Below, in pieces: positions 8,228 through 63,260 of a DNA stretch of 64,000 nt (positions are counted from its first letter, which is position 1; every line of letters begins with the position of its first letter). This stretch comes from Candidatus Enterousia sp. Its GTDB lineage: Bacteria; Pseudomonadota; Alphaproteobacteria; Rs-D84. Position numbers and translations under genes: made by a program. The stretch lies in the NCBI GenBank assembly GCA_045606425.1, contig JAZURV010000013.1:1199-65198 (forward strand), written 5' to 3'. Under the pieces are notes generated by a model. The model was not told where the DNA came from and made no database searches. It worked only from the letters and a program-made list of their open reading frames with translations.

Positions 8228-9508
8228 TTATAAAGGTAATACCACGCGAACTTTTAATCCACCCAGTTCACTGTTTTCCAAGAATATCTGTCCGCCATGA
8301 TTTTCAATGGCTGTTTTTGCGATGGATAATCCCAAACCAGTGCCACCGGTCAATTCGCTGCGCGATTCGTCCAGACGAACAAATGGTTGTAATGCCAACT
8401 CTTTTTTGTCATCAGGGATACCGATTCCGTCGTCTTCTATTATGACTGTCACAGATTCGTCAGAATCCGTTTCTGTGATTTTTAAAGTTTTCTTTGTAAA
8501 GCGCGCGGCGTTTTCAATGATGTTTGTGAATGCACTGGTCAGCGCATTTGGTCGTGCGTAAAATTGGACAGGTTCTTCTGGGAATTGTAAAACAATGTTC
8601 TTTTTTGGGGCTGCGTCGCGGGCAATCCGTGTCAGCATAGCCGGTAATTCTACGGCCTGTTCTATCTCTGGAGTTTCGCCACGGGCAAACGCCAGATACC
8701 CATTTACCATTTCGCTCATTCTGTCGATTTCGTGTAATAAATCCTGTTTGTCGGCAGAATCAGTTTCAATTGCCAGGCGCATGCGCGTCAATGGGGTTTT
8801 TAAATCGTGGCCCACAGCGTTTAACATGTCTGTCCTGGTTTTGTTGTACCGATTCAGCCGCTCTTTCATTGTTATCATGGCGTGCGCTGCTTCGCGGATT
8901 TCCATTGAACCGCTGGGTTGAAATCCGGGAACATCCATACCGCGTCCGAATTTGTTTGCTGCCTTTGCAATACGGCGAATACTGCGCGTGTGCGCGATAA
9001 CAAACGGGGTTATTAAAACGGATACAATCAGTATTGCGCCCAACACCCATAACAAGAAAACTTCTGTGCTGGTGGAATATATACGGTGCATACTGGTTGC
9101 GAAAGTAGCAATTTTGTTATCCTGGGTTGGAACATCGATAAATATTAAACGTTTTCCGCGGTCAATGTAAACAGCAGTTGGTTTTTCTATGCGTTGTTGT
9201 AATTCTGATACCAACGGGCCTGCTTCGCGTGATTTGTTGTCGTTTTCGCGTGGTCTGTTTAATTTTTCATTTATTGAAACATTTATACCAATGTCGTTTG
9301 CCAGCATTTTCACAGCATTGGTATTGCCTGCGTCCATAAAGTGCACCATTGTCGCAACTTCGCCTGCCAATGTGCGCGCCAGCGTTTCGTGTACTTTTTT
9401 CCAATGGTTGCCAAAGAAAGAATTTGCGACAATCAGTAATGCCACCACCATCGGCACCAGTACCATCAAAATTGTACGCCCCAGAAAACTGCGCGGTATA
9501 ATTCTCAT
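8228..9508 (-). CDS. Membrane sensor histidine kinase (EnvZ/PhoR-like)
   Basis: Two TM segments, an H-box (GHDLKTPLTRMRL), an N-box (ENAARFT), G1 (DDGIGIP) and G2 (GGTGLGLSI). Confidence 0.85.
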   Translation of the reverse strand: MRIIPRSFLGRTILMVLVPMVVALLIVANSFFGNHWKKVHETLARTLAGEVATMVHFMDAGNTNAVKMLANDIGINVSINEKLNRPRENDNKSREAGPLVSELQQRIEKPTAVYIDRGKRLIFIDVPTQDNKIATFATSMHRIYSTSTEVFLLWVLGAILIVSVLITPFVIAHTRSIRRIAKAANKFGRGMDVPGFQPSGSMEIREAAHAMITMKERLNRYNKTRTDMLNAVGHDLKTPLTRMRLAIETDSADKQDLLHEIDRMSEMVNGYLAFARGETPEIEQAVELPAMLTRIARDAAPKKNIVLQFPEEPVQFYARPNALTSAFTNIIENAARFTKKTLKITETDSDESVTVIIEDDGIGIPDDKKELALQPFVRLDESRSELTGGTGLGLSIAKTAIENHGGQIFLENSELGGLKVRVVLPL

Positions 9509-15461: not shown

Positions 15462-15802
15462 AATGTGCCAGGCGTTCAATAAGCCGGATTCTGTACAGCC
15501 AAAATCGCGTCCAAAGACCCAATAAAGGTTGCAAGCATAATTAATCTGCAAATTGCGTTGCCGCAAAATGTCAAGCCCTCTACCCAGTTCCGTTAGCGAC
15601 AGGGACGGTCTTGGAACCCTTTTTGAGGTTGCTGCACATAGAGATTGCCCGTTTCACCGTAACTAAATACGCTCGTCTCTGCTGCTCTAATCATCGGGTT
15701 ACCCCGTGTGGTCATTAGCCACTATGTTGTCCCAATGCAGTCCGGACTTTCCTCGGTATCACGACGCTGTGGTACCGCTATGCTTTTTCGCACCTGGCGT
15801 AC
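15462..15802 (-). ncRNA. rnpB: RNase P RNA, bacterial type A
   Basis: The minus strand carries the universally conserved GAGGAAAGTCCGGAC (P4 5' strand) and ACAGAATCCGGCTTAT (P4 3' strand). A P1 pairing of GCCAGGTG with CGCCTGGC closes the ends. About 340 nt. Confidence 0.9.
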
Positions 15803-32490: not shown

Positions 32491-32549
32491 TATCAGATTT
32501 GATATTGAAAAATTTATTTACCCCAGGTTTGAAAACTTGGGGTTTAAAT

Positions 32550-32855
32550 TTATACTATATATGTAATATGTGGTTGCGGAATGTGTGGACCCCCATCTAA
32601 ACTTTTGCTGTATTTTTGTGCAGATTTAAGATTGTTTATAACATGGTAAAAAAATACATCTTCAAATATGATACTGGGTTTTTTTGAATAAATTTTCCAA
32701 AAATCATCAGTTTCGTCAATCAAAAATGAATAAACCGTTTGGGTCGCGGCATAGGTGTCCAAATCTTTGACACACAAAAGTTGTTCTATTTTTTCTTTTT
32801 TGCCAAAAACGAAAGCCCGCGCCAATTCTTGCTCTGTTATTTCATAAAGACTCAT
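32550..32855 (-). CDS. Hypothetical 101-aa protein downstream of structured RNA element A
   Basis: ORF with an ATG 30 nt after the element A terminator. No domain recognised. Confidence 0.4.
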   Translation of the reverse strand: MSLYEITEQELARAFVFGKKEKIEQLLCVKDLDTYAATQTVYSFLIDETDDFWKIYSKKPSIIFEDVFFYHVINNLKSAQKYSKSLDGGPHIPQPHITYIV

Positions 32856-32884: not shown

Positions 32885-33050
32885 AAAAAACAACCGCGAA
32901 AAAATTTTGCGGTTGGGGATAGACAACAATAAGACTAATTGCTCCGTTTATTCGATATATTCACGGACCCCCAACCATTGTTGGGTTTAATGTCCTTTTT
33001 AGACAAGTCTTAATAGGTGTCTAGCCAAAAGGAAACAACACGCTTCCTCG
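32885..33050 (-). ncRNA. Candidate structured leader or sRNA, copy A (paralog of 53797-53973)
   Basis: TTTACT-16 nt-TACAAT promoter (33084-33057, minus strand). P1 hairpin at 33048-33030. A hairpin at 32967-32943 presents the loop AAUAUAUCGAAUA. The CCCAAC/GTTGGG hairpin is followed by a duplicated CCCCAAC that overlaps an intrinsic terminator (32919-32885). Confidence 0.55.
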
Positions 33051-33141
33051 CTTTGAATTGTACCATATAATTCTAAAAAGTAAAGAACATATATTGGTAT
33101 TTTTTATGAAAACATACCGACAATATTTTTATTTTTACCCC

Positions 33142-33169
33142 CTTGAAACCATGTTTTTTATAACTATAT
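33142..33169 (+). promoter_or_regulatory. RpoH (sigma32)-type heat-shock promoter of dnaK
   Basis: CTTGAAA-15 nt-CTATATTT. The lon promoter at 59094-59121 has the same hexamers and spacing. This fits the alphaproteobacterial sigma32 consensus (CTTG ... CYTAT.T). Confidence 0.65.
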
Positions 33170-33215
33170 TTTGGCTAAGCGAGAAAAAACTTTACCAAAT
33201 CAAGGAGCAAACAAA

Positions 33216-35105
33216 ATGGCAAAAGTATTAGGTATCGATTTAGGAACAACAAATTCCGCCATGGCTTTCATGGACGGAAATGACCCCAAAATTATTGAAA
33301 ACAGTGAAGGTCAGCGCACAACACCATCGGTGGTTGCAATTACAAATAATGGTGACCAATTGGTTGGGATTACCGCGAAAAACCAGGCTGTGACAAATCC
33401 AGAAAATACTATTTATGAAATCAAGCGTTTGATGGGATTGCGTTTTGACAGTCCTGCGGTCAAAGAAATTCAAAAACGCGTTCCTTATAAAATCGTGGCT
33501 GGCGATAACGGTGATGCCTGGGTTGAAATCGAAGGCAAAAAATATGCCCCGTCCCAGATTTCTGCAATGATTTTGTCTAAATTGAAAAAAGACGCAGAAG
33601 CCTATTTGGGTGAAAAAATCACAGATGCGGTTATTACTGTGCCTGCATATTTTAATGATTCTCAGCGTCAGGCAACAAAAGATGCTGGTCGTATTGCGGG
33701 ATTAAATGTGTTGCGTATTGTCAACGAACCAACTGCCGCGGCATTGGCATACGGTTTGGATAAAAACAAAGATGGCACAATCGCGGTTTACGACCTGGGT
33801 GGTGGTACTTTCGATGTGTCTATTTTGGAAATTGTTGACGGTGTGTTCGAAGTAAAATCTACCAATGGTGATACTGAATTGGGTGGTTCTGATTTTGATG
33901 CACGCGTGTTAAAATATTTGATGGACGAATTCAAAGCACAAACAGGTATCGATTTGTCCAATGATAAATTGGCACTGCAGCGTCTGAAAGAAGCAGCCGA
34001 AAAAGCAAAAATCGAATTGTCGTCAAAAACATCAACAGATATCAATCTGCCTTATTTGACAGCAGATGCCACAGGTCCAAAACATTTCAACACAACATTG
34101 ACCCGCGCAAAATTAGAATCTTTGGTTGCTGATTTGATTGAAAAGACAATCGAACCTTGCAAGAAGGCATTGAAAGATGCGGGATTGACCACATCGCAAA
34201 TCAACGAAGTTATTTTGGTTGGTGGTCAAACGCGTATGCCAAAGGTTGTTGAAACTGTAAAAGAATTCTTTGGTCGCGAACCGCACAAGGGCGTAAACCC
34301 AGACGAAGTTGTTGCGTTGGGTGCTGCGATTCAGGGTGGTGTTTTGAAAGGCGATGTCAAAGATGTTTTGTTGCTGGATGTGACACCGTTGTCGTTGGGT
34401 ATTGAAACATTGGGTGGTGTATTTACTCGCCTGATTGACAGAAATACTACAATTCCAACCAAAAAATCTCAGATTTTCTCTACCGCAGAAGACAACCAAT
34501 CTGCTGTGACAATTCGTGTGTTCCAGGGCGAACGCGACATGGCGGCAGACAACAAATTGCTGGGTCAATTTAATTTAGAAGGTATCGCACCTGCCCCGCG
34601 TGGCATGCCACAAATCGAAGTGTCTTTTGATATAGACGCAAACGGTATCGTTCATGTGTCTGCCAAGGATAAAGGTACCGGCAAAGAACAAGCGATTTCA
34701 ATTAAATCTGACGGTGGTTTGTCCGAAGACGAAATCAAACGCATGGTCGATGAAGCCGCTGCAAATGCCGAAGCTGATAAAAAGAAAAAAGAATTAGCCG
34801 AGGCAAAAAATACAGCAGAAACCGCTGTGTTCAGTATTGAAAAATCACTGAAAGAACATGGGGATAAAATCAGTGCCGCAGAACGTGAAGCAATCGAAAA
34901 CGCCAAAAAAGAATTGTCTGATGAATTGGCAAAAGCCGATGCAACAGCTGAATCTTTAAAGGCAAAAACCGATGCGTTGACTGAAAAAGCCATGAAATTG
35001 GGTGAAGCAGTCTATAAAGCCGCCCAAGAAGCACAAAAATCAGAAGAAAACAAATCTGAATCTGGTGATAACAAGACAACAGATGCAGATTTTTCTGAAA
35101 AGTAA
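33216..35105 (+). CDS. dnaK: Chaperone DnaK (Hsp70)
   Basis: [17 protein letters not shown] and [11 protein letters not shown] motifs. Start set at the ATG after the AAGGAG RBS. The ORF track TTG at 33171 is rejected. Confidence 0.97.
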
Positions 35106-39771: not shown

Positions 39772-39845
39772 TGGTGCGGGCAAAGGGAATCGAACCCTCG
39801 TCTAAAGCTTGGGAAGCTTTCGTTCTGCCATTATACCATGCCCGC
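39772..39845 (-). tRNA. tRNA-Gly (anticodon CCC), CCA encoded
   Basis: Minus strand reads GCGGGCA-TG-GTAT-AATGGCA-GAAC-G-AAAGC-TTCCCAA-GCTTT-AGAC-GAGGG-TTCGATT-CCCTT-TGCCCGC-A-CCA. This is a clean cloverleaf, close to E. coli tRNA-Gly(CCC). Confidence 0.93.
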
Positions 39846-53722: not shown

Positions 53723-53728
53723 ACAATA

Positions 53729-53757
53729 ACGGCGCAAATAATTGCGCCGTTTATTTT
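53729..53757 (+). terminator. Intrinsic terminator of the coiled-coil protein gene
   Basis: ACGGCGCAA-ATA-ATTGCGCCGT hairpin followed by TTATTTTT. Confidence 0.7.
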
Positions 53758-53796
53758 TCGCTTTTATTTATAAATATTTTTTGATAAAATAGGTTT

Positions 53797-53973
53797 GTCA
53801 GGAAGTGTTTTCCTGATGGGGTGTAACGACTCGTTTCGATGCGCGTCCATGATGACGTTAAAACTCCAACCATGTTGGGTTGGAGGGCTGCAAAATATAT
53901 CGAATATGCACACAATTTCGCATTGAATTGTCGTTAACCTCCAACCGCCTTTATATTATAAGTGCGGTTTTTT
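53797..53973 (+). ncRNA. Candidate structured leader or sRNA, copy B (paralog of 32885-33050)
   Basis: Extended -10 TGATAAAAT (53782-53790). P1 at 53798-53816. Hairpin CTCCAACC/GGTTGGAG at 53864-53885. A hairpin at 53889-53910 presents AAUAUAUCGAAUA. A second CTCCAACC at 53939-53946 overlaps the terminator (AACCGC at 53943-53948, GCGGTT at 53964-53969, then a T-run). Confidence 0.55.
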
Positions 53974-54053
53974 GATGTTGCACCAGGAAGGATTTGACAA
54001 CATGGGTTAGCCGTGTTTTATGCGTGGGTGCGGTTTGGAAAAGGAAGGGAACA

Positions 54054-55646
54054 ATGAAAAAAATTTTATCTTTTGTATTTGCATGCTTGGTTTTTACGTT
54101 ACCTGCATTTGCGTGCAATACAAATGAAATCGATGTTTTGGGGGATGGAACCCAATGTCAAACCGCACATTTTACACTTACCACCACATCAACGAACAGT
54201 TTTCAATTCAGTCTGTCTGCGGCGGGCACATTCTATGTCGATTGTGGAAACGGCGGAACATTAAGTGGCACAAACGCATCTGGGAAAATAATATCGCGCG
54301 GTTCTTCTACAACAAATACAACATACTCATGTTCTTGGGGAACCAGTACCGCACAAACAGTCCGATTCGGTGGGACGGCAACGGATTATAATACCAGTAC
54401 ATCTACGGCGGCAATCAGTTTTTATACCGACATCACAAATGCGCAAAAGGTTTATTCGATTACTGGTGATTTGGGTAAAATCTTTGGTGCCGTCCAAAGT
54501 AACCAGATACCAAGATTTCAACGAACATTTTACAGTTGCAGCAAATTAACCACCATCCCATCCGGATTATTTGATTCCGTTGATACATCCAACGCAACCG
54601 ATACAAGTTATATGTTTAACCAAACATTTCGCAATTGCAGCGGTTTAACCGCCATCTCAACCGGATTATTTGATTCCATTAATACATCCAACGCAACCCA
54701 TACAAGTTATATGTTTAGCTACACATTTTCCAATTGCAGCGGTTTAACCGCCATCCCAACCGGATTATTTGATTCCATTAATACATCCAACGCAACAAAT
54801 ACAAATTATATGTTTCAACGAACATTTTACAGTTGCAGCAAATTAACCACCATCCCAACCGGATTATTTGATTCCATTAATACATCCAATGCAACCAATA
54901 CCAGTTATATGTTTTACTACACATTTTACAATTGCAGTAATTTAACCGATATTCCATCTGGATTATTTAATTCCATTGATACATCCAACGCAACCAATAC
55001 AAGTGGTATGTTTCAATATACATTTTCCAATTGCAGCGGTTTAACCAGTATGCCGGCAACTTTGTTTAATTCAAATATCGGCATGGTAAATGGTGCCATT
55101 TATACCAATATGTTTTCCGACATGTTTTACAACTGTACCAACCTTGGTGGGTATATACCGTCAACAACTTTTCCATCCGGGATAACAACGGCATTAAACG
55201 CATCAATCGATGTTTTCCTTAACACAAAATTGGCAACAGAATGTCCGGCGGGGACAACACTATATGCAACATACACCCCGAACAGCAAGGTTGCATGTGA
55301 AGAAATCTCAGGGATAGACTGTTCATCGGGGTATTATCTGCCCGCAAATGTTAACGAATGCACACAGTGCCCGGCGAACAGCGCGTGTGTTGGTGGTACA
55401 TACAGTTTTAACGAAACAATGTCCCAGGGAATTGAACCATGTGCAACGGGATATTCGTCGGTTGCGGGCGCGTCGGTATGCACAGCAAACACAATAAATA
55501 TAACATGGGACAATGCGAACACTGCCGACATCACGGCAAATAACGCAGGTTCGGTCACATACGGTGGCGATATTCGTACCCCACGGAAAGCACAACATAT
55601 AAATGGAAAAATATTTGTCGGTTGGACTTTTAATAATCCAGAATAA
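54054..55646 (+). CDS. Secreted surface protein: BspA-type leucine-rich repeats, a Cys-rich module and a Listeria-Bacteroides-type repeat
   Basis: Signal peptide MKKILSFVFACLVFTLPAFA. At least five 33-aa repeats (F..CS.LT.IP.GLFDS..TSNAT.TS.MF). C-terminal CPAG...C...C..GYY......C..CPANS.C.GG. The protein ends in G..FVGW. Confidence 0.75.
   Translation: MKKILSFVFACLVFTLPAFACNTNEIDVLGDGTQCQTAHFTLTTTSTNSFQFSLSAAGTFYVDCGNGGTLSGTNASGKIISRGSSTTNTTYSCSWGTSTAQTVRFGGTATDYNTSTSTAAISFYTDITNAQKVYSITGDLGKIFGAVQSNQIPRFQRTFYSCSKLTTIPSGLFDSVDTSNATDTSYMFNQTFRNCSGLTAISTGLFDSINTSNATHTSYMFSYTFSNCSGLTAIPTGLFDSINTSNATNTNYMFQRTFYSCSKLTTIPTGLFDSINTSNATNTSYMFYYTFYNCSNLTDIPSGLFNSIDTSNATNTSGMFQYTFSNCSGLTSMPATLFNSNIGMVNGAIYTNMFSDMFYNCTNLGGYIPSTTFPSGITTALNASIDVFLNTKLATECPAGTTLYATYTPNSKVACEEISGIDCSSGYYLPANVNECTQCPANSACVGGTYSFNETMSQGIEPCATGYSSVAGASVCTANTINITWDNANTADITANNAGSVTYGGDIRTPRKAQHINGKIFVGWTFNNPE
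54519..55060 (+). repeat. In-frame 99-bp tandem repeats (about 5.5 copies) encoding the LRR units
   Basis: The unit CAACGAACATTTTACAGTTGCAGCAAATTAACCACCATCCCA... recurs with a 99-nt period. 54519 and 54816 are near-identical. Confidence 0.85.
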
Positions 55647-57938: not shown

Positions 57939-57953
57939 TTATAACTTAAAAAC

Positions 57954-57982
57954 TTGCAATTTCCAGTATGAATATTTATAAT
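57954..57982 (+). promoter_or_regulatory. Sigma70-like promoter of ssrA
   Basis: TTGCAA-17 nt-TATAAT. Confidence 0.6.
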
Positions 57983-57989
57983 GTGTTTG

Positions 57990-58305
57990 CTGTGTATAAC
58001 AGTGATGATTCTGAATTCGTTGCGGAATAATCGTTTTGGACTGGGGGGCGGTACCCCACAGCTCCACCACTTTATTCACGGGGCTGACATAGTTTCGACA
58101 GGCGAAGTAAAGGCAAATCGATTGAATCCGGGTTGTTCCGTTATAAACAAACTAAAAACTGAATGGCGATAGAATCGCTGCGAACGATAATGTTCGCTTT
58201 GCAATGGCTGCCTAATATGGCATTGGAATATGTTGGCAATTGTTGATGTATTCCGTTTAGCTTTTGCGGGGTCTGTCGGGTACCTGGCACCAGAAACCCG
58301 GCGTT
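57990..58305 (+). ncRNA. ssrA: tmRNA, circularly permuted two-piece (alphaproteobacterial) form
   Basis: The acceptor piece ends in ...CTGGGGGGCGGTACCCCACAGCTCCACCA (CCA at 58067-58069). Ten nt later the coding piece starts GGGGCTGACATAGTTTCGACAGG (58080). GGGGCUG pairs with CAGCUCC and includes the G3:U pair. The tag ORF GCG AAC GAT AAT GTT CGC TTT GCA ATG GCT GCC TAA (58180-58215) encodes ANDNVRFAMAA. The outer boundaries are approximate. Confidence 0.88.
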
Positions 58306-63183: not shown

Positions 63184-63260
63184 GGGCTAATAGCTCAGTT
63201 GGTTAGAGCGGAGCGCTCATAACGCTTTGGTCGTGGGTTCGAGTCCTACTTAGCCCACCA
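63184..63260 (+). tRNA. tRNA with anticodon CAT (elongator Met or lysidine-modified Ile2, not distinguishable here), CCA encoded
   Basis: GGGCTAA-TA-GCTC-AGTTGGTTA-GAGC-G-GAGCG-CTCATAA-CGCTT-TGGTC-GTGGG-TTCGAGT-CCTAC-TTAGCCC-A-CCA. Confidence 0.9.

Follow-up and report, generated by a model that had tools for sequence, protein, structure and literature searches.

A family of structured leader RNAs with two mutually exclusive folds precedes regulator and surface-protein genes in Rs-D84/Enterousia gut bacteria

A 64,000-nucleotide (nt) stretch of DNA from Candidatus Enterousia sp. (assembly GCA_045606425.1, contig JAZURV010000013.1, positions 1,199 to 65,198 of the forward strand; hereafter the window) contains two copies of a structured RNA element, copy A on the minus strand and copy B on the plus strand. 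Together with homologues from related genomes and metagenomes they form a previously uncatalogued family, whose architecture and covariation go far beyond chance and mark it as a real structured RNA family. We favour the reading that each element is a self-contained promoter-leader-terminator cassette, working as a cis-acting terminator/antiterminator switch that gates the gene behind it, and put its probability at roughly 0.68. The modelled anatomy is that of a terminator, an antiterminator and an anti-antiterminator. From this anatomy we infer that the two folds alternate in vivo, that the switch has OFF as its default, and that a trigger exists. Devices of this kind are known, whereas the antisense 5' domain, the stand-alone core and the promoter-bearing tandem arrays are new.

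Bacteria of the Rs-D84/Enterousia lineage are uncultured and widespread in the guts of ruminants, poultry, horses and humans. The genomes of Enterousia, a member of the uncultured order Rs-D84, measure about 0.75-1.0 Mb (PMC12306168). A search of the literature returned no RNA work on this lineage.

The features of copy A are listed here in the order of the transcript, the closed (OFF) fold before the alternative (ON) fold.

33057-33084, minus strand: predicted promoter, TTTACT (33084-79), a 16-nt spacer and TGn-TACAAT
32885-33052, minus strand: copy A element, whole
33049-42 with 33036-29, minus strand: P1, the 5'-terminal hairpin, from the minimum free energy (MFE) fold
32920-33023, minus strand: closed OFF fold (P2-P6), from the MFE fold and family covariation
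33023-18 (UAGACA) with 32925-20 (UGUCUA), minus strand: P2
33012-06 with 32936-30, minus strand: P3
33005-01 with 32995-91, minus strand: P4
32985-80 (CCCAAC) with 32975-70 (GUUGGG), minus strand: P5
32967-63 (UCCGU) with 32947-43 (ACGGA), minus strand: P6
32948-32962, minus strand: P6 loop GAAUAUAUCGAAUAA, 15 nt, present in both folds
33027-25 (UGG) with 33016-14 (CUA), minus strand: helix X of the ON fold, surrounding the P2 5' strand
32911-32976, minus strand: core three-way junction of the ON fold (Alt, P6 and Y), a core model match of 74.9 bits
32976-68 (GGUUGGGGG) with 32919-11 (UCCCCAACC), minus strand: helix Alt
32941-38 (CAAU) with 32930-27 (AUUG), minus strand: helix Y
32885-32915, minus strand: intrinsic terminator, stem 32915-06 with 32901-32891 and U-run 32890-32885
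32550-32855, minus strand: downstream open reading frame (ORF) of 101 amino acids (aa), with its ATG 30 nt past the U-run and AAGGG before the ATG

Much of this anatomy had been proposed in an earlier reading of the same DNA, referred to here as the original prediction. The minus-strand promoter TTTACT-16 nt-TACAAT (33084-33057) is present and is also reported by an independent promoter consensus scan, with the extended-10 TG at 33065-64 and the -10 box at 33062-57; transcription would start at about 33050-33052. P1 (AGGAA/TTCCT), the hairpin CCCAAC-AATG-GTTGGGGG (in RNA, CCCAAC-AAUG-GUUGGGGG), the segment CCCCAACCGC...GCGGTTG followed by T6 (32919-32885), and the ORF start at 32855, 30 nt past the terminator, were likewise found as proposed. 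The strand TAGACA (33023-18) and two copies of TGTCTA (33005-00 and 32925-20) are all there, and the distal copy is the genuine partner, the P2 5' strand having a mean distal complement of 6.8 nt over 71 members. The suggested local partner at 33005-00 turned out to be coincidental, as the longest local complement averages 3.38 nt over 71 members, against 3.41 nt in shuffled sequences. Helix Y, the stand-alone cores and the tandem arrays were missing from that earlier picture.

Copies A and B share an identical architecture built from differing helix sequences. When compared with dinucleotide shuffles, their folds have z-scores of -4.7 and -5.3, respectively, and none of 200 shuffles equals either. 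The 13-mer AATATATCGAATA of the P6 loop occurs exactly twice in the window, at 32949-61 (minus) and at 53894-906 (plus), and was used to collect further members. A scan of one genome per species with the pattern AATATATCGAATA-N25-45-CCAACCGC returned 38 loci, 30 of which are true members. All of these come from gut Alphaproteobacteria metagenome-assembled genomes (MAGs), labelled Candidatus Enterousia, 'uncultured Alphaproteobacteria' or RUG bins, with at most three copies per assembly; the other eight are chance matches in unrelated taxa, about as many as expected. A covariance model (R1), built from 31 trimmed first-round members, recovers copies missed by the pattern. Metagenomes, scanned with the pattern GGTTGG-N5-12-AATATATCGAATA, in which the distal strand was left free, and then with model R1, yielded 55 further copies. 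The final alignment (A5) comprises 85 members (79 distinct sequences), all drawn from Rs-D84/Enterousia-type gut Alphaproteobacteria, in part from genomes and in part from metagenomes. Since the collection patterns fixed AATATATCGAATA plus CCAACCGC or GGTTGG, the conservation of those blocks is partly due to ascertainment; about 20 copies found by the model alone provide an unbiased view of it.

Over 81 distinct loci the units measure 142-207 nt, with a median of 171, and share one layout, consisting of a -10 box, the P1 hairpin, the closed fold (P2, P3, an optional P4, P5 and P6) and an intrinsic terminator. No family match was found for copy A, copy B or the most consensus-like member (L025) in Rfam release 15 (4227 families). 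Permissive Rfam scans gave weak matches far under the gathering scores, the best being to an archaeal small nucleolar RNA (E = 0.0012), and at gathering thresholds the window contains only RNase P, transfer-messenger RNA (tmRNA) and tRNAs. A search of viral contigs gave three pattern matches, none of them a family member.

The closed fold is formed by all 31 first-round members when each is folded singly and without constraint: P1, a long P2+P3 stem, a junction (optional P4, P5 and P6) and the terminator appear in every case. In alignment A5 (79 distinct sequences), 92.6% of the cells in this nested structure are paired, versus 36-51% when the partners are slid by 1-3 columns, and compensatory (double-sided) changes occur in 36 of the 48 pairs (784 cells); these pair counts come from model-fitted alignments, which biases them towards structure, and the unfitted alignments and single-sequence folds agree with them. 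None of 500 covariation shuffles reaches any of these measures, so that the shared helices outperform shuffled controls in this respect as well as in folding, although the relatedness of the members means that shuffle controls overstate significance, sturdier measures being the count of distinct pair types and the slid controls. The covariation of the helices, first proposed from copies A and B, is thus backed by 85 homologues.

Compensatory change is seen at every modelled pair of P1 (seven pairs), P2, P3, P4 and P6. P5 and the terminator are for the most part conserved; the 5' arm of P5 varies by GU pairs and mismatches, and the terminator of 30 sequences has CCAC/GUGG in place of CCGC/GCGG, a compensated exchange. 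A plain MAFFT alignment recovers P2, P5, P6 and the terminator with compensations; it was unable to align P1, P3 and P4, for which reason model-based realignment was used. The P5 loops have 4-8 nt and the P6 loop has 15 nt. The latter, with the consensus GAAUAUAUYGAAUAA, is the most conserved unpaired element and is found in both folds as well as in the short 'mini' units described below. In copy A the hairpin TCCGT/ACGGA (32967-43) does surround GAAUAUAUCGAAUAA, as originally proposed, but the 13-nt loop sequence then called identical is conserved and not invariant, with model-found copies carrying GAAUAUAUUGAAUAA, GAUAUAUAUAAAUAA, GAAUAUCCAAAAUAA and others. A kissing interaction between the P1 and P6 loops was considered and rejected on inspection, as it suits GUGUU loops and not the GAUGAUUAC loops of other members.

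A second fold, incompatible with the closed one, is described by three helices, given here as they appear across the family.

GGG after P1 with CCY after the P2 5' strand: helix X, 95.7% paired, one pair being GC48/GU17/AU10/UA2
CWAUW with WAUWG, flanking the P3 3' strand: helix Y, 88.8% paired, one pair being UA39/AU32 with rarer GC and CG
GGUUGGAGG (the P5 3' arm) with the distal CCUCCAACC: helix Alt, 98.9% paired over 9 bp

The competing helices of the original prediction are thereby borne out, in that GGUUGG(A/G)GG pairs either with the upstream C-rich strand (P5) or with the one fused to the terminator, and the distal pairing is the better kept of the two (98.9% versus 92.6%). Alt covaries at four pairs (UA to CG in 3 cases, AU to GC in 5, GC to AU in 1 and GC to UA in 12) and has whole-helix variants in L053 (GGUCAGGAGG/CCUCCUGGCC), L084 (GGUUGGGAU/AUCCCAACC) and L079 (GGCUGGAG/CUCCAGCC). 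Because differing Alt variants share one contig (L079), the pairing appears to be intramolecular. The last four bases of the Alt distal strand are the first four of the terminator 5' arm (AACC), and in copy A too Alt covers these four bases; the terminator 5' arm can therefore pair alternatively in a conserved antiterminator. Alt crosses P2 and P3, so that it is possible only once these have opened, and X and Y take up exactly those strands that the opening sets free. When Alt is enforced in silico, X forms in 46 and Y in 52 of 78 folds, with P2, P3, P5 and the terminator lost; in unconstrained folds X forms in none and Y in four of the 78.

For the 64-72-nt core, RNAalifold applied to a MAFFT-only alignment gives the Alt/P6/Y three-way junction with 14 of its 19 pairs compensated. 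An MFE pairing of the 5' GGGG with the distal CUCC was discarded, as it has no compensatory change and shows mismatches where its 5' side varies; helix X, which compensates exactly where that pairing fails, replaces it. The junction strand between Y and Alt is variable in sequence because it covaries with the 5' domain. This variability speaks against a classical junction pocket and slightly favours a protein or RNA partner over a metabolite.

We propose that the element works as follows. A sigma-70-type promoter would start the RNA at the base of hairpin P1, and the next ~150 nt could adopt two mutually exclusive folds. The OFF fold would be the thermodynamic and probably also the co-transcriptional default, with the 5' half pairing with the 3' half via P2 and P3. 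In this fold CUCCAACC would pair with GGUUGGAG as P5 and leave the distal CCUCCAACCGC free for the terminator hairpin; polymerase would then stop at the U-run and an RNA of ~170 nt would be released. The P5 5' arm, as a putative anti-antiterminator, would compete with the distal strand for GGUUGGAGG. In the ON fold GGUUGGAGG would pair with the distal CCUCCAACC (Alt), closing a three-way junction with P6 and hairpin Y and removing the first four bases of the terminator 5' arm. The freed P2 5' strand would be held in hairpin X, and polymerase would read on into the gene, which lies 15-80 nt further down.

The three-way junction, together with the conserved 15-nt loop of P6, is the leading candidate for the sensor and might be bound by a protein, an RNA or a small molecule. 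We offer as a speculation, with the odds somewhat against it, that the Alt/P6/Y junction is the receptor of a new signal-sensing RNA class (a riboswitch or the site of a dedicated RNA-binding regulator) and a master switch for surface-protein and XRE-regulator expression in the regulator-poor genomes of these gut symbionts; the 5' domain would serve as a toehold-like antisense reset, and stand-alone junctions and arrays as signal-titrating decoys or processive antitermination modules. A leader-peptide attenuator was also considered and rejected, as the 5' open frame of copy B is not conserved (in L003 it stops after 13 codons) and no conserved Shine-Dalgarno sequence or AUG is present.

The position of the units is consistent with a cis-acting switch. 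A -10 box matching TATAAT in at least five of six positions is found in 60 of 81 loci, nearly always 5-6 nt ahead of the start of P1; when the offset is fixed, a box of this quality is present in 62 of 78 units and the extended-10 TGn in 35 of 78. The terminator hairpins have a median energy of -9.8 kcal/mol (87% at or below -8 kcal/mol) and U-rich tails. What lies downstream of the 81 units is as follows.

same-strand ORF within 80 nt: 64 units
another unit: 7 units
ORF at 81-250 nt: 4 units
nothing recognisable: 4 units
contig end: 2 units

The unit is thus placed between a -10 box and the same-strand start codon of the downstream gene. There is no space for a second promoter before that gene, which must therefore be reached by read-through. 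The downstream products include at least 26 small XRE/Cro-type helix-turn-helix (HTH) proteins, 62-127 aa in length. About 25 others have a signal peptide and carry Listeria-Bacteroides repeats, DUF285/BspA-like repeats or Cys-rich ephrin-receptor-like modules. The remainder are a few small unknown proteins, among them the 101-aa ORF of the window. The product of this ORF has no Pfam or NCBIfam match, and an exact look-up of the protein in public assemblies returned no record; a 30%-identical homologue (E = 3e-7) is encoded behind the orthologous element in L035. No metabolic theme is apparent among the downstream genes, and the pattern resembles that of signalling-molecule riboswitches, a likeness that is no proof of that class. 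In genomes of ~0.75-1.0 Mb, the family defines a regulon that comprises surface or secreted proteins and small regulators of the XRE type. The original prediction had seen in one leader design before unrelated genes either a small regulon or a family of small RNAs (sRNAs), and of these two the leader regulon is the better fit, given the ORF that closely follows the unit at 64 of 81 loci.

The units sit in ordinary core-genome intergenic regions. One MAG (CALXWX01) has three dispersed copies (L008, L021 and L031), each followed by a near-identical 82-aa XRE protein; their leaders have P1 and the terminator in common and have diverged in P2 and P3, so that leader and regulator must have been duplicated as one module. 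The leader-HTH unit at L008 is monocistronic. No partner protein was found at locus L079, the neighbourhood of which holds housekeeping genes only.

The core can also stand alone. A core-only model (R2) recovers all full units, and mini units were identified in three independent arrays (L017/L065/L073, L053/L112 and L079:8039-8105). In a mini unit the three-way junction comes straight after a -10 box of its own, and both the P1-P4 domain and a strong terminator are absent. The helix sequences of mini units are unlike those of neighbouring units, which argues that the junction is selected as a fold in its own right. Tandem arrays consist of 2-5 units, full and mini forms mixed, and end just before a small XRE-type HTH gene. 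They were found at four places.

L017:3242-3784, minus strand: tandem array
L053:8427-9382, plus strand: tandem array
L072:345-995, minus strand: tandem array
L079:8039-8590, plus strand: tandem array

One array unit, at L053:~8990-9180 (plus strand) and also present in L112, keeps the layout, with the conserved loop AAUAUAUCGAAUAA replaced by a plain CGGUUGC-UU-GCAACCG hairpin; its strands are GGUUGGGAGG / CCUCCC. Units of this sort may form a sub-family in which the recognition loop has changed or been lost.

Several observations weigh against a switch of this kind, besides the bias of the pair counts mentioned above. The closed OFF fold is ahead in energy by a mean of 6.8 kcal/mol even before the terminator 3' arm is made, and Alt appears in none of 32 MFE structures of truncated transcripts. 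With the OFF fold favoured to this extent, OFF should be the default and switching to ON must have an input. The covariation of three strands (the two P5 arms and the distal strand) could also arise if both C-rich strands match a common partner. Each array unit has its own promoter and terminator, and the mini units have no strong terminator; a pure cis attenuator requires neither. Among RNA runs, a query with the element alone matched none. Three RNA libraries examined for copy A, copy B and L059 gave dnaK coverage, core-only matches from other strains, or contigs of depth 2, and these depth-2 contigs also span the region upstream of the promoter, a non-transcribed flank; none of the three libraries gives usable evidence of a transcript from the element.

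Other explanations of the element have to be weighed against the same data. It is rather unlikely, in our view, that the units are genes for trans-acting 'sibling' sRNAs, in which a ~170-nt RNA with C-rich CCUCCAACC anti-Shine-Dalgarno seeds, or its P6 loop, would regulate mRNAs or titrate a protein, the position in front of genes being secondary or part of a dual role. Such a role would account for the promoter and strong terminator of each unit, for tandem arrays of up to five as in known sibling sRNAs, and for the mini units with no ORF directly behind them, and short RNAs should indeed accumulate if termination is the default. However, 64 of the 81 units have a same-strand start codon within 80 nt, a bias unexpected for independent sRNA genes, and this strict adjacency is kept despite their own promoter and terminator. 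Both C-rich strands are base-paired in either fold, and the 64-kb window shows no enrichment of target sites like GGUUGGAGG (12 versus 7 expected, with 5 of the 12 inside elements). Moreover, copies that lie on the same contig have different Alt variants, as would be expected more from pairing within the molecule than from a target in common. A dual cis and trans role is possible.

Quite improbable is a constitutive structured 5' leader, that is, a stability or processing element with a leaky terminator and fixed low expression, in which Alt, X and Y would be redundant pairings or intermediates of folding. Hairpins at the 5' end, of which P1 is an example, commonly stabilise mRNAs, energy strongly favours the OFF fold, and the switch rests on an inferred ligand or protein, all of which would suit such a leader. 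On the other hand, three helices incompatible with P2, P3, P5 and the terminator are kept by compensatory changes, and the Alt/P6/Y junction is kept stand-alone with helix sequences unlike those of neighbouring units; both are hard to explain without a functional second conformation. The multi-copy, dispersed and sometimes tandem occurrence in core-genome intergenic regions might recall a selfish or neutral repeat of the REP, BOX or MITE type without a regulatory role, but paralogues in the same genome differ throughout P1-P4 and P6 with pairing kept, which points to purifying selection on structure rather than recent transposition. The units also keep a fixed orientation and spacing relative to the genes behind them, neither terminal inverted repeats nor target-site duplications were observed, and viral contigs lack the family; we regard a repeat of this type as highly improbable. 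Finally, the proximity of copy A to dnaK, whose start codon lies 165 nt away on the opposite strand, allows the region to be read as a divergent dnaK promoter or untranslated region with no minus-strand RNA. This is effectively refuted. The element recurs at more than 80 loci whose neighbours are unrelated, among them copy B, which follows a terminated 647-aa gene; it is the minus strand that carries the conserved -10 box, the terminator and the covarying helices; and dnaK has a promoter-like site of its own (33143-33170).

As a cis-acting switch the family has several counterparts among known systems. It resembles terminating riboswitch platforms, such as the purine and other three-way-junction riboswitches, in its promoter-proximal leader, multi-copy regulon and tandem arrangements, and in that the closing helix of the junction shares its 3' strand with the terminator 5' arm while a competing upstream strand decides. 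Unlike in riboswitches, the junction strands are variable with no obvious conserved ligand pocket, the most conserved unpaired element is a 15-nt hairpin loop, three separate parts of the junction have their antisense in one whole 5' domain (the 5' strands of P2, P3 and P5), and the regulated genes encode regulators and surface proteins, not metabolic or transport functions. The cyclic di-GMP-I and -II riboswitches of Clostridia and Vibrio occur in many copies before adhesin or other surface-protein genes and regulator genes, on both ON and OFF terminator platforms. The present family is like these regulons in copy number and gene types, without sequence or structure similarity (Rfam scans were negative).

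The proposed choice between terminator and antiterminator is shared with the T-box, PyrR, TRAP, BglG/SacY RAT and ANTAR systems, where a trans factor binds a conserved RNA element and controls many leaders. The family differs from these attenuators in having none of their signature motifs, there being no specifier loop or T-box sequence and no (G/U)AG repeats as for TRAP, and from ANTAR targets in having no tandem pair of hexaloop hairpins, its loops being of 4-8 nt (P5) and 15 nt (P6) in another architecture. The sibling sRNAs LhrC1-5 of Listeria, CcsR1-4 of Rhodobacter and AbcR1/2 are tandem RNAs of ~100-200 nt with C-rich, CCUCC-like strands and links to surface proteins. Arrays, a promoter and terminator per unit, C-rich strands and the surface-protein link are found in the present family as well; here, however, the C-rich strands are paired intramolecularly in both folds, and the units are almost always fused to a gene in cis. 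In the put elements of phage HK022 and the EAR element of Bacillus eps operons, a compact RNA near the transcript 5' end lets polymerase pass downstream terminators. By analogy, stand-alone junctions ahead of full units in arrays would fit a put/EAR-like role, although there is no sequence or structure similarity to these elements and local sequestration of the terminator arm already explains read-through.

Copy B is matched by model R1 at 127.9 bits and by core model R2 at 68.5 bits. Its features are as follows.

53795-53975, plus strand: copy B element (with the -10 box, from 53782)
53782-53790, plus strand: -10 box, TGn-TAAAAT
53797-804 with 53810-817, plus strand: P1
53824-30 with 53930-36, plus strand: P2
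53835-42 with 53920-27, plus strand: P3
53843-47 with 53854-58, plus strand: P4
53864-71 with 53878-85, plus strand: P5
53889-92 with 53907-10, plus strand: P6
53878-86 (GGUUGGAGG) with 53938-46 (CCUCCAACC), plus strand: Alt
53943-51 with 53960-69, plus strand: terminator, with a U-run to 53975
54055-55646, plus strand: gene behind copy B, encoding a signal-peptide repeat protein, DUF285/BspA-like

A strong GC-rich hairpin with a T-run at 53728-53751, terminator-like on both strands, ends the 647-aa gene upstream of copy B, which is therefore an independent transcription unit. The mechanically called 550-aa ORF behind it (53994-55646, plus strand) opens at TTG 53994, 19 nt past the leader U-run. 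The true start is likely ATG 54055 (MKKILSF...), 80 nt past the U-run; this ATG is preceded by GGAAGGGAA and gives a typical signal peptide, MKKILSFVFACLVFTLPAFA. In one bovine gut metatranscriptome (run X17), a 270-nt contig of depth 25 matches only the Y-to-distal part of copy B (53908-53952). The contig extends across a GGTGG-T8 terminator and has ...GGGUCCCCAAAAAAAAAGAAUAAG on its upstream side; probably it represents a diverged member of the family that is expressed in another strain and has an A-rich P6 loop.

Around copy A, the mechanically called dnaK ORF (33171-35105, plus strand) opens at TTG 33171, and the conserved N-terminus starts from ATG 33216. The promoter-like site ahead of dnaK, TTGAAA-16-TATATT at 33143-33170, stands back to back with the copy A promoter. 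A GC-rich hairpin with a T-run at 32520-32543, called on the plus strand only, lies between a converging L25-like gene and the 101-aa ORF. Other RNAs of the window are a class A RNase P RNA (15464-15797, minus strand), an alpha-type permuted two-piece tmRNA (57950-58305, plus strand) and two tRNAs (39775-39845, minus strand, and 63184-63257, plus strand), which are ordinary housekeeping RNAs; they place the window, the DNA of a low-GC inhabitant of ruminant guts, in the Alphaproteobacteria. Elsewhere, at L005:1654-1872 (plus strand), we noted a different and very stable structured intergenic RNA candidate, with an MFE of -89.8 kcal/mol over 219 nt, that ends in a CCGACCGTC...GGCGGTTT terminator and is matched weakly by model R1 (27 bits, E = 5.6e-4). 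Either a distant relative or a further leader family of the same genomes may be represented here.

To our knowledge, nothing is known about gene regulation in Rs-D84/Enterousia bacteria. A cassette of 170 nt that is repeated many times, with up to five in a row, before genes for small regulators and surface proteins probably ranks among the principal means by which they control their genes. The large number of members, the strong covariation, the two defined folds and the compact stand-alone core together single the family out as a strong candidate, either for an orphan riboswitch or for a protein-RNA attenuation system of a new kind, and the element is short enough for direct in vitro testing without culturing the host. 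Adding the family to RNA databases would end the annotation of such loci as empty intergenic DNA.

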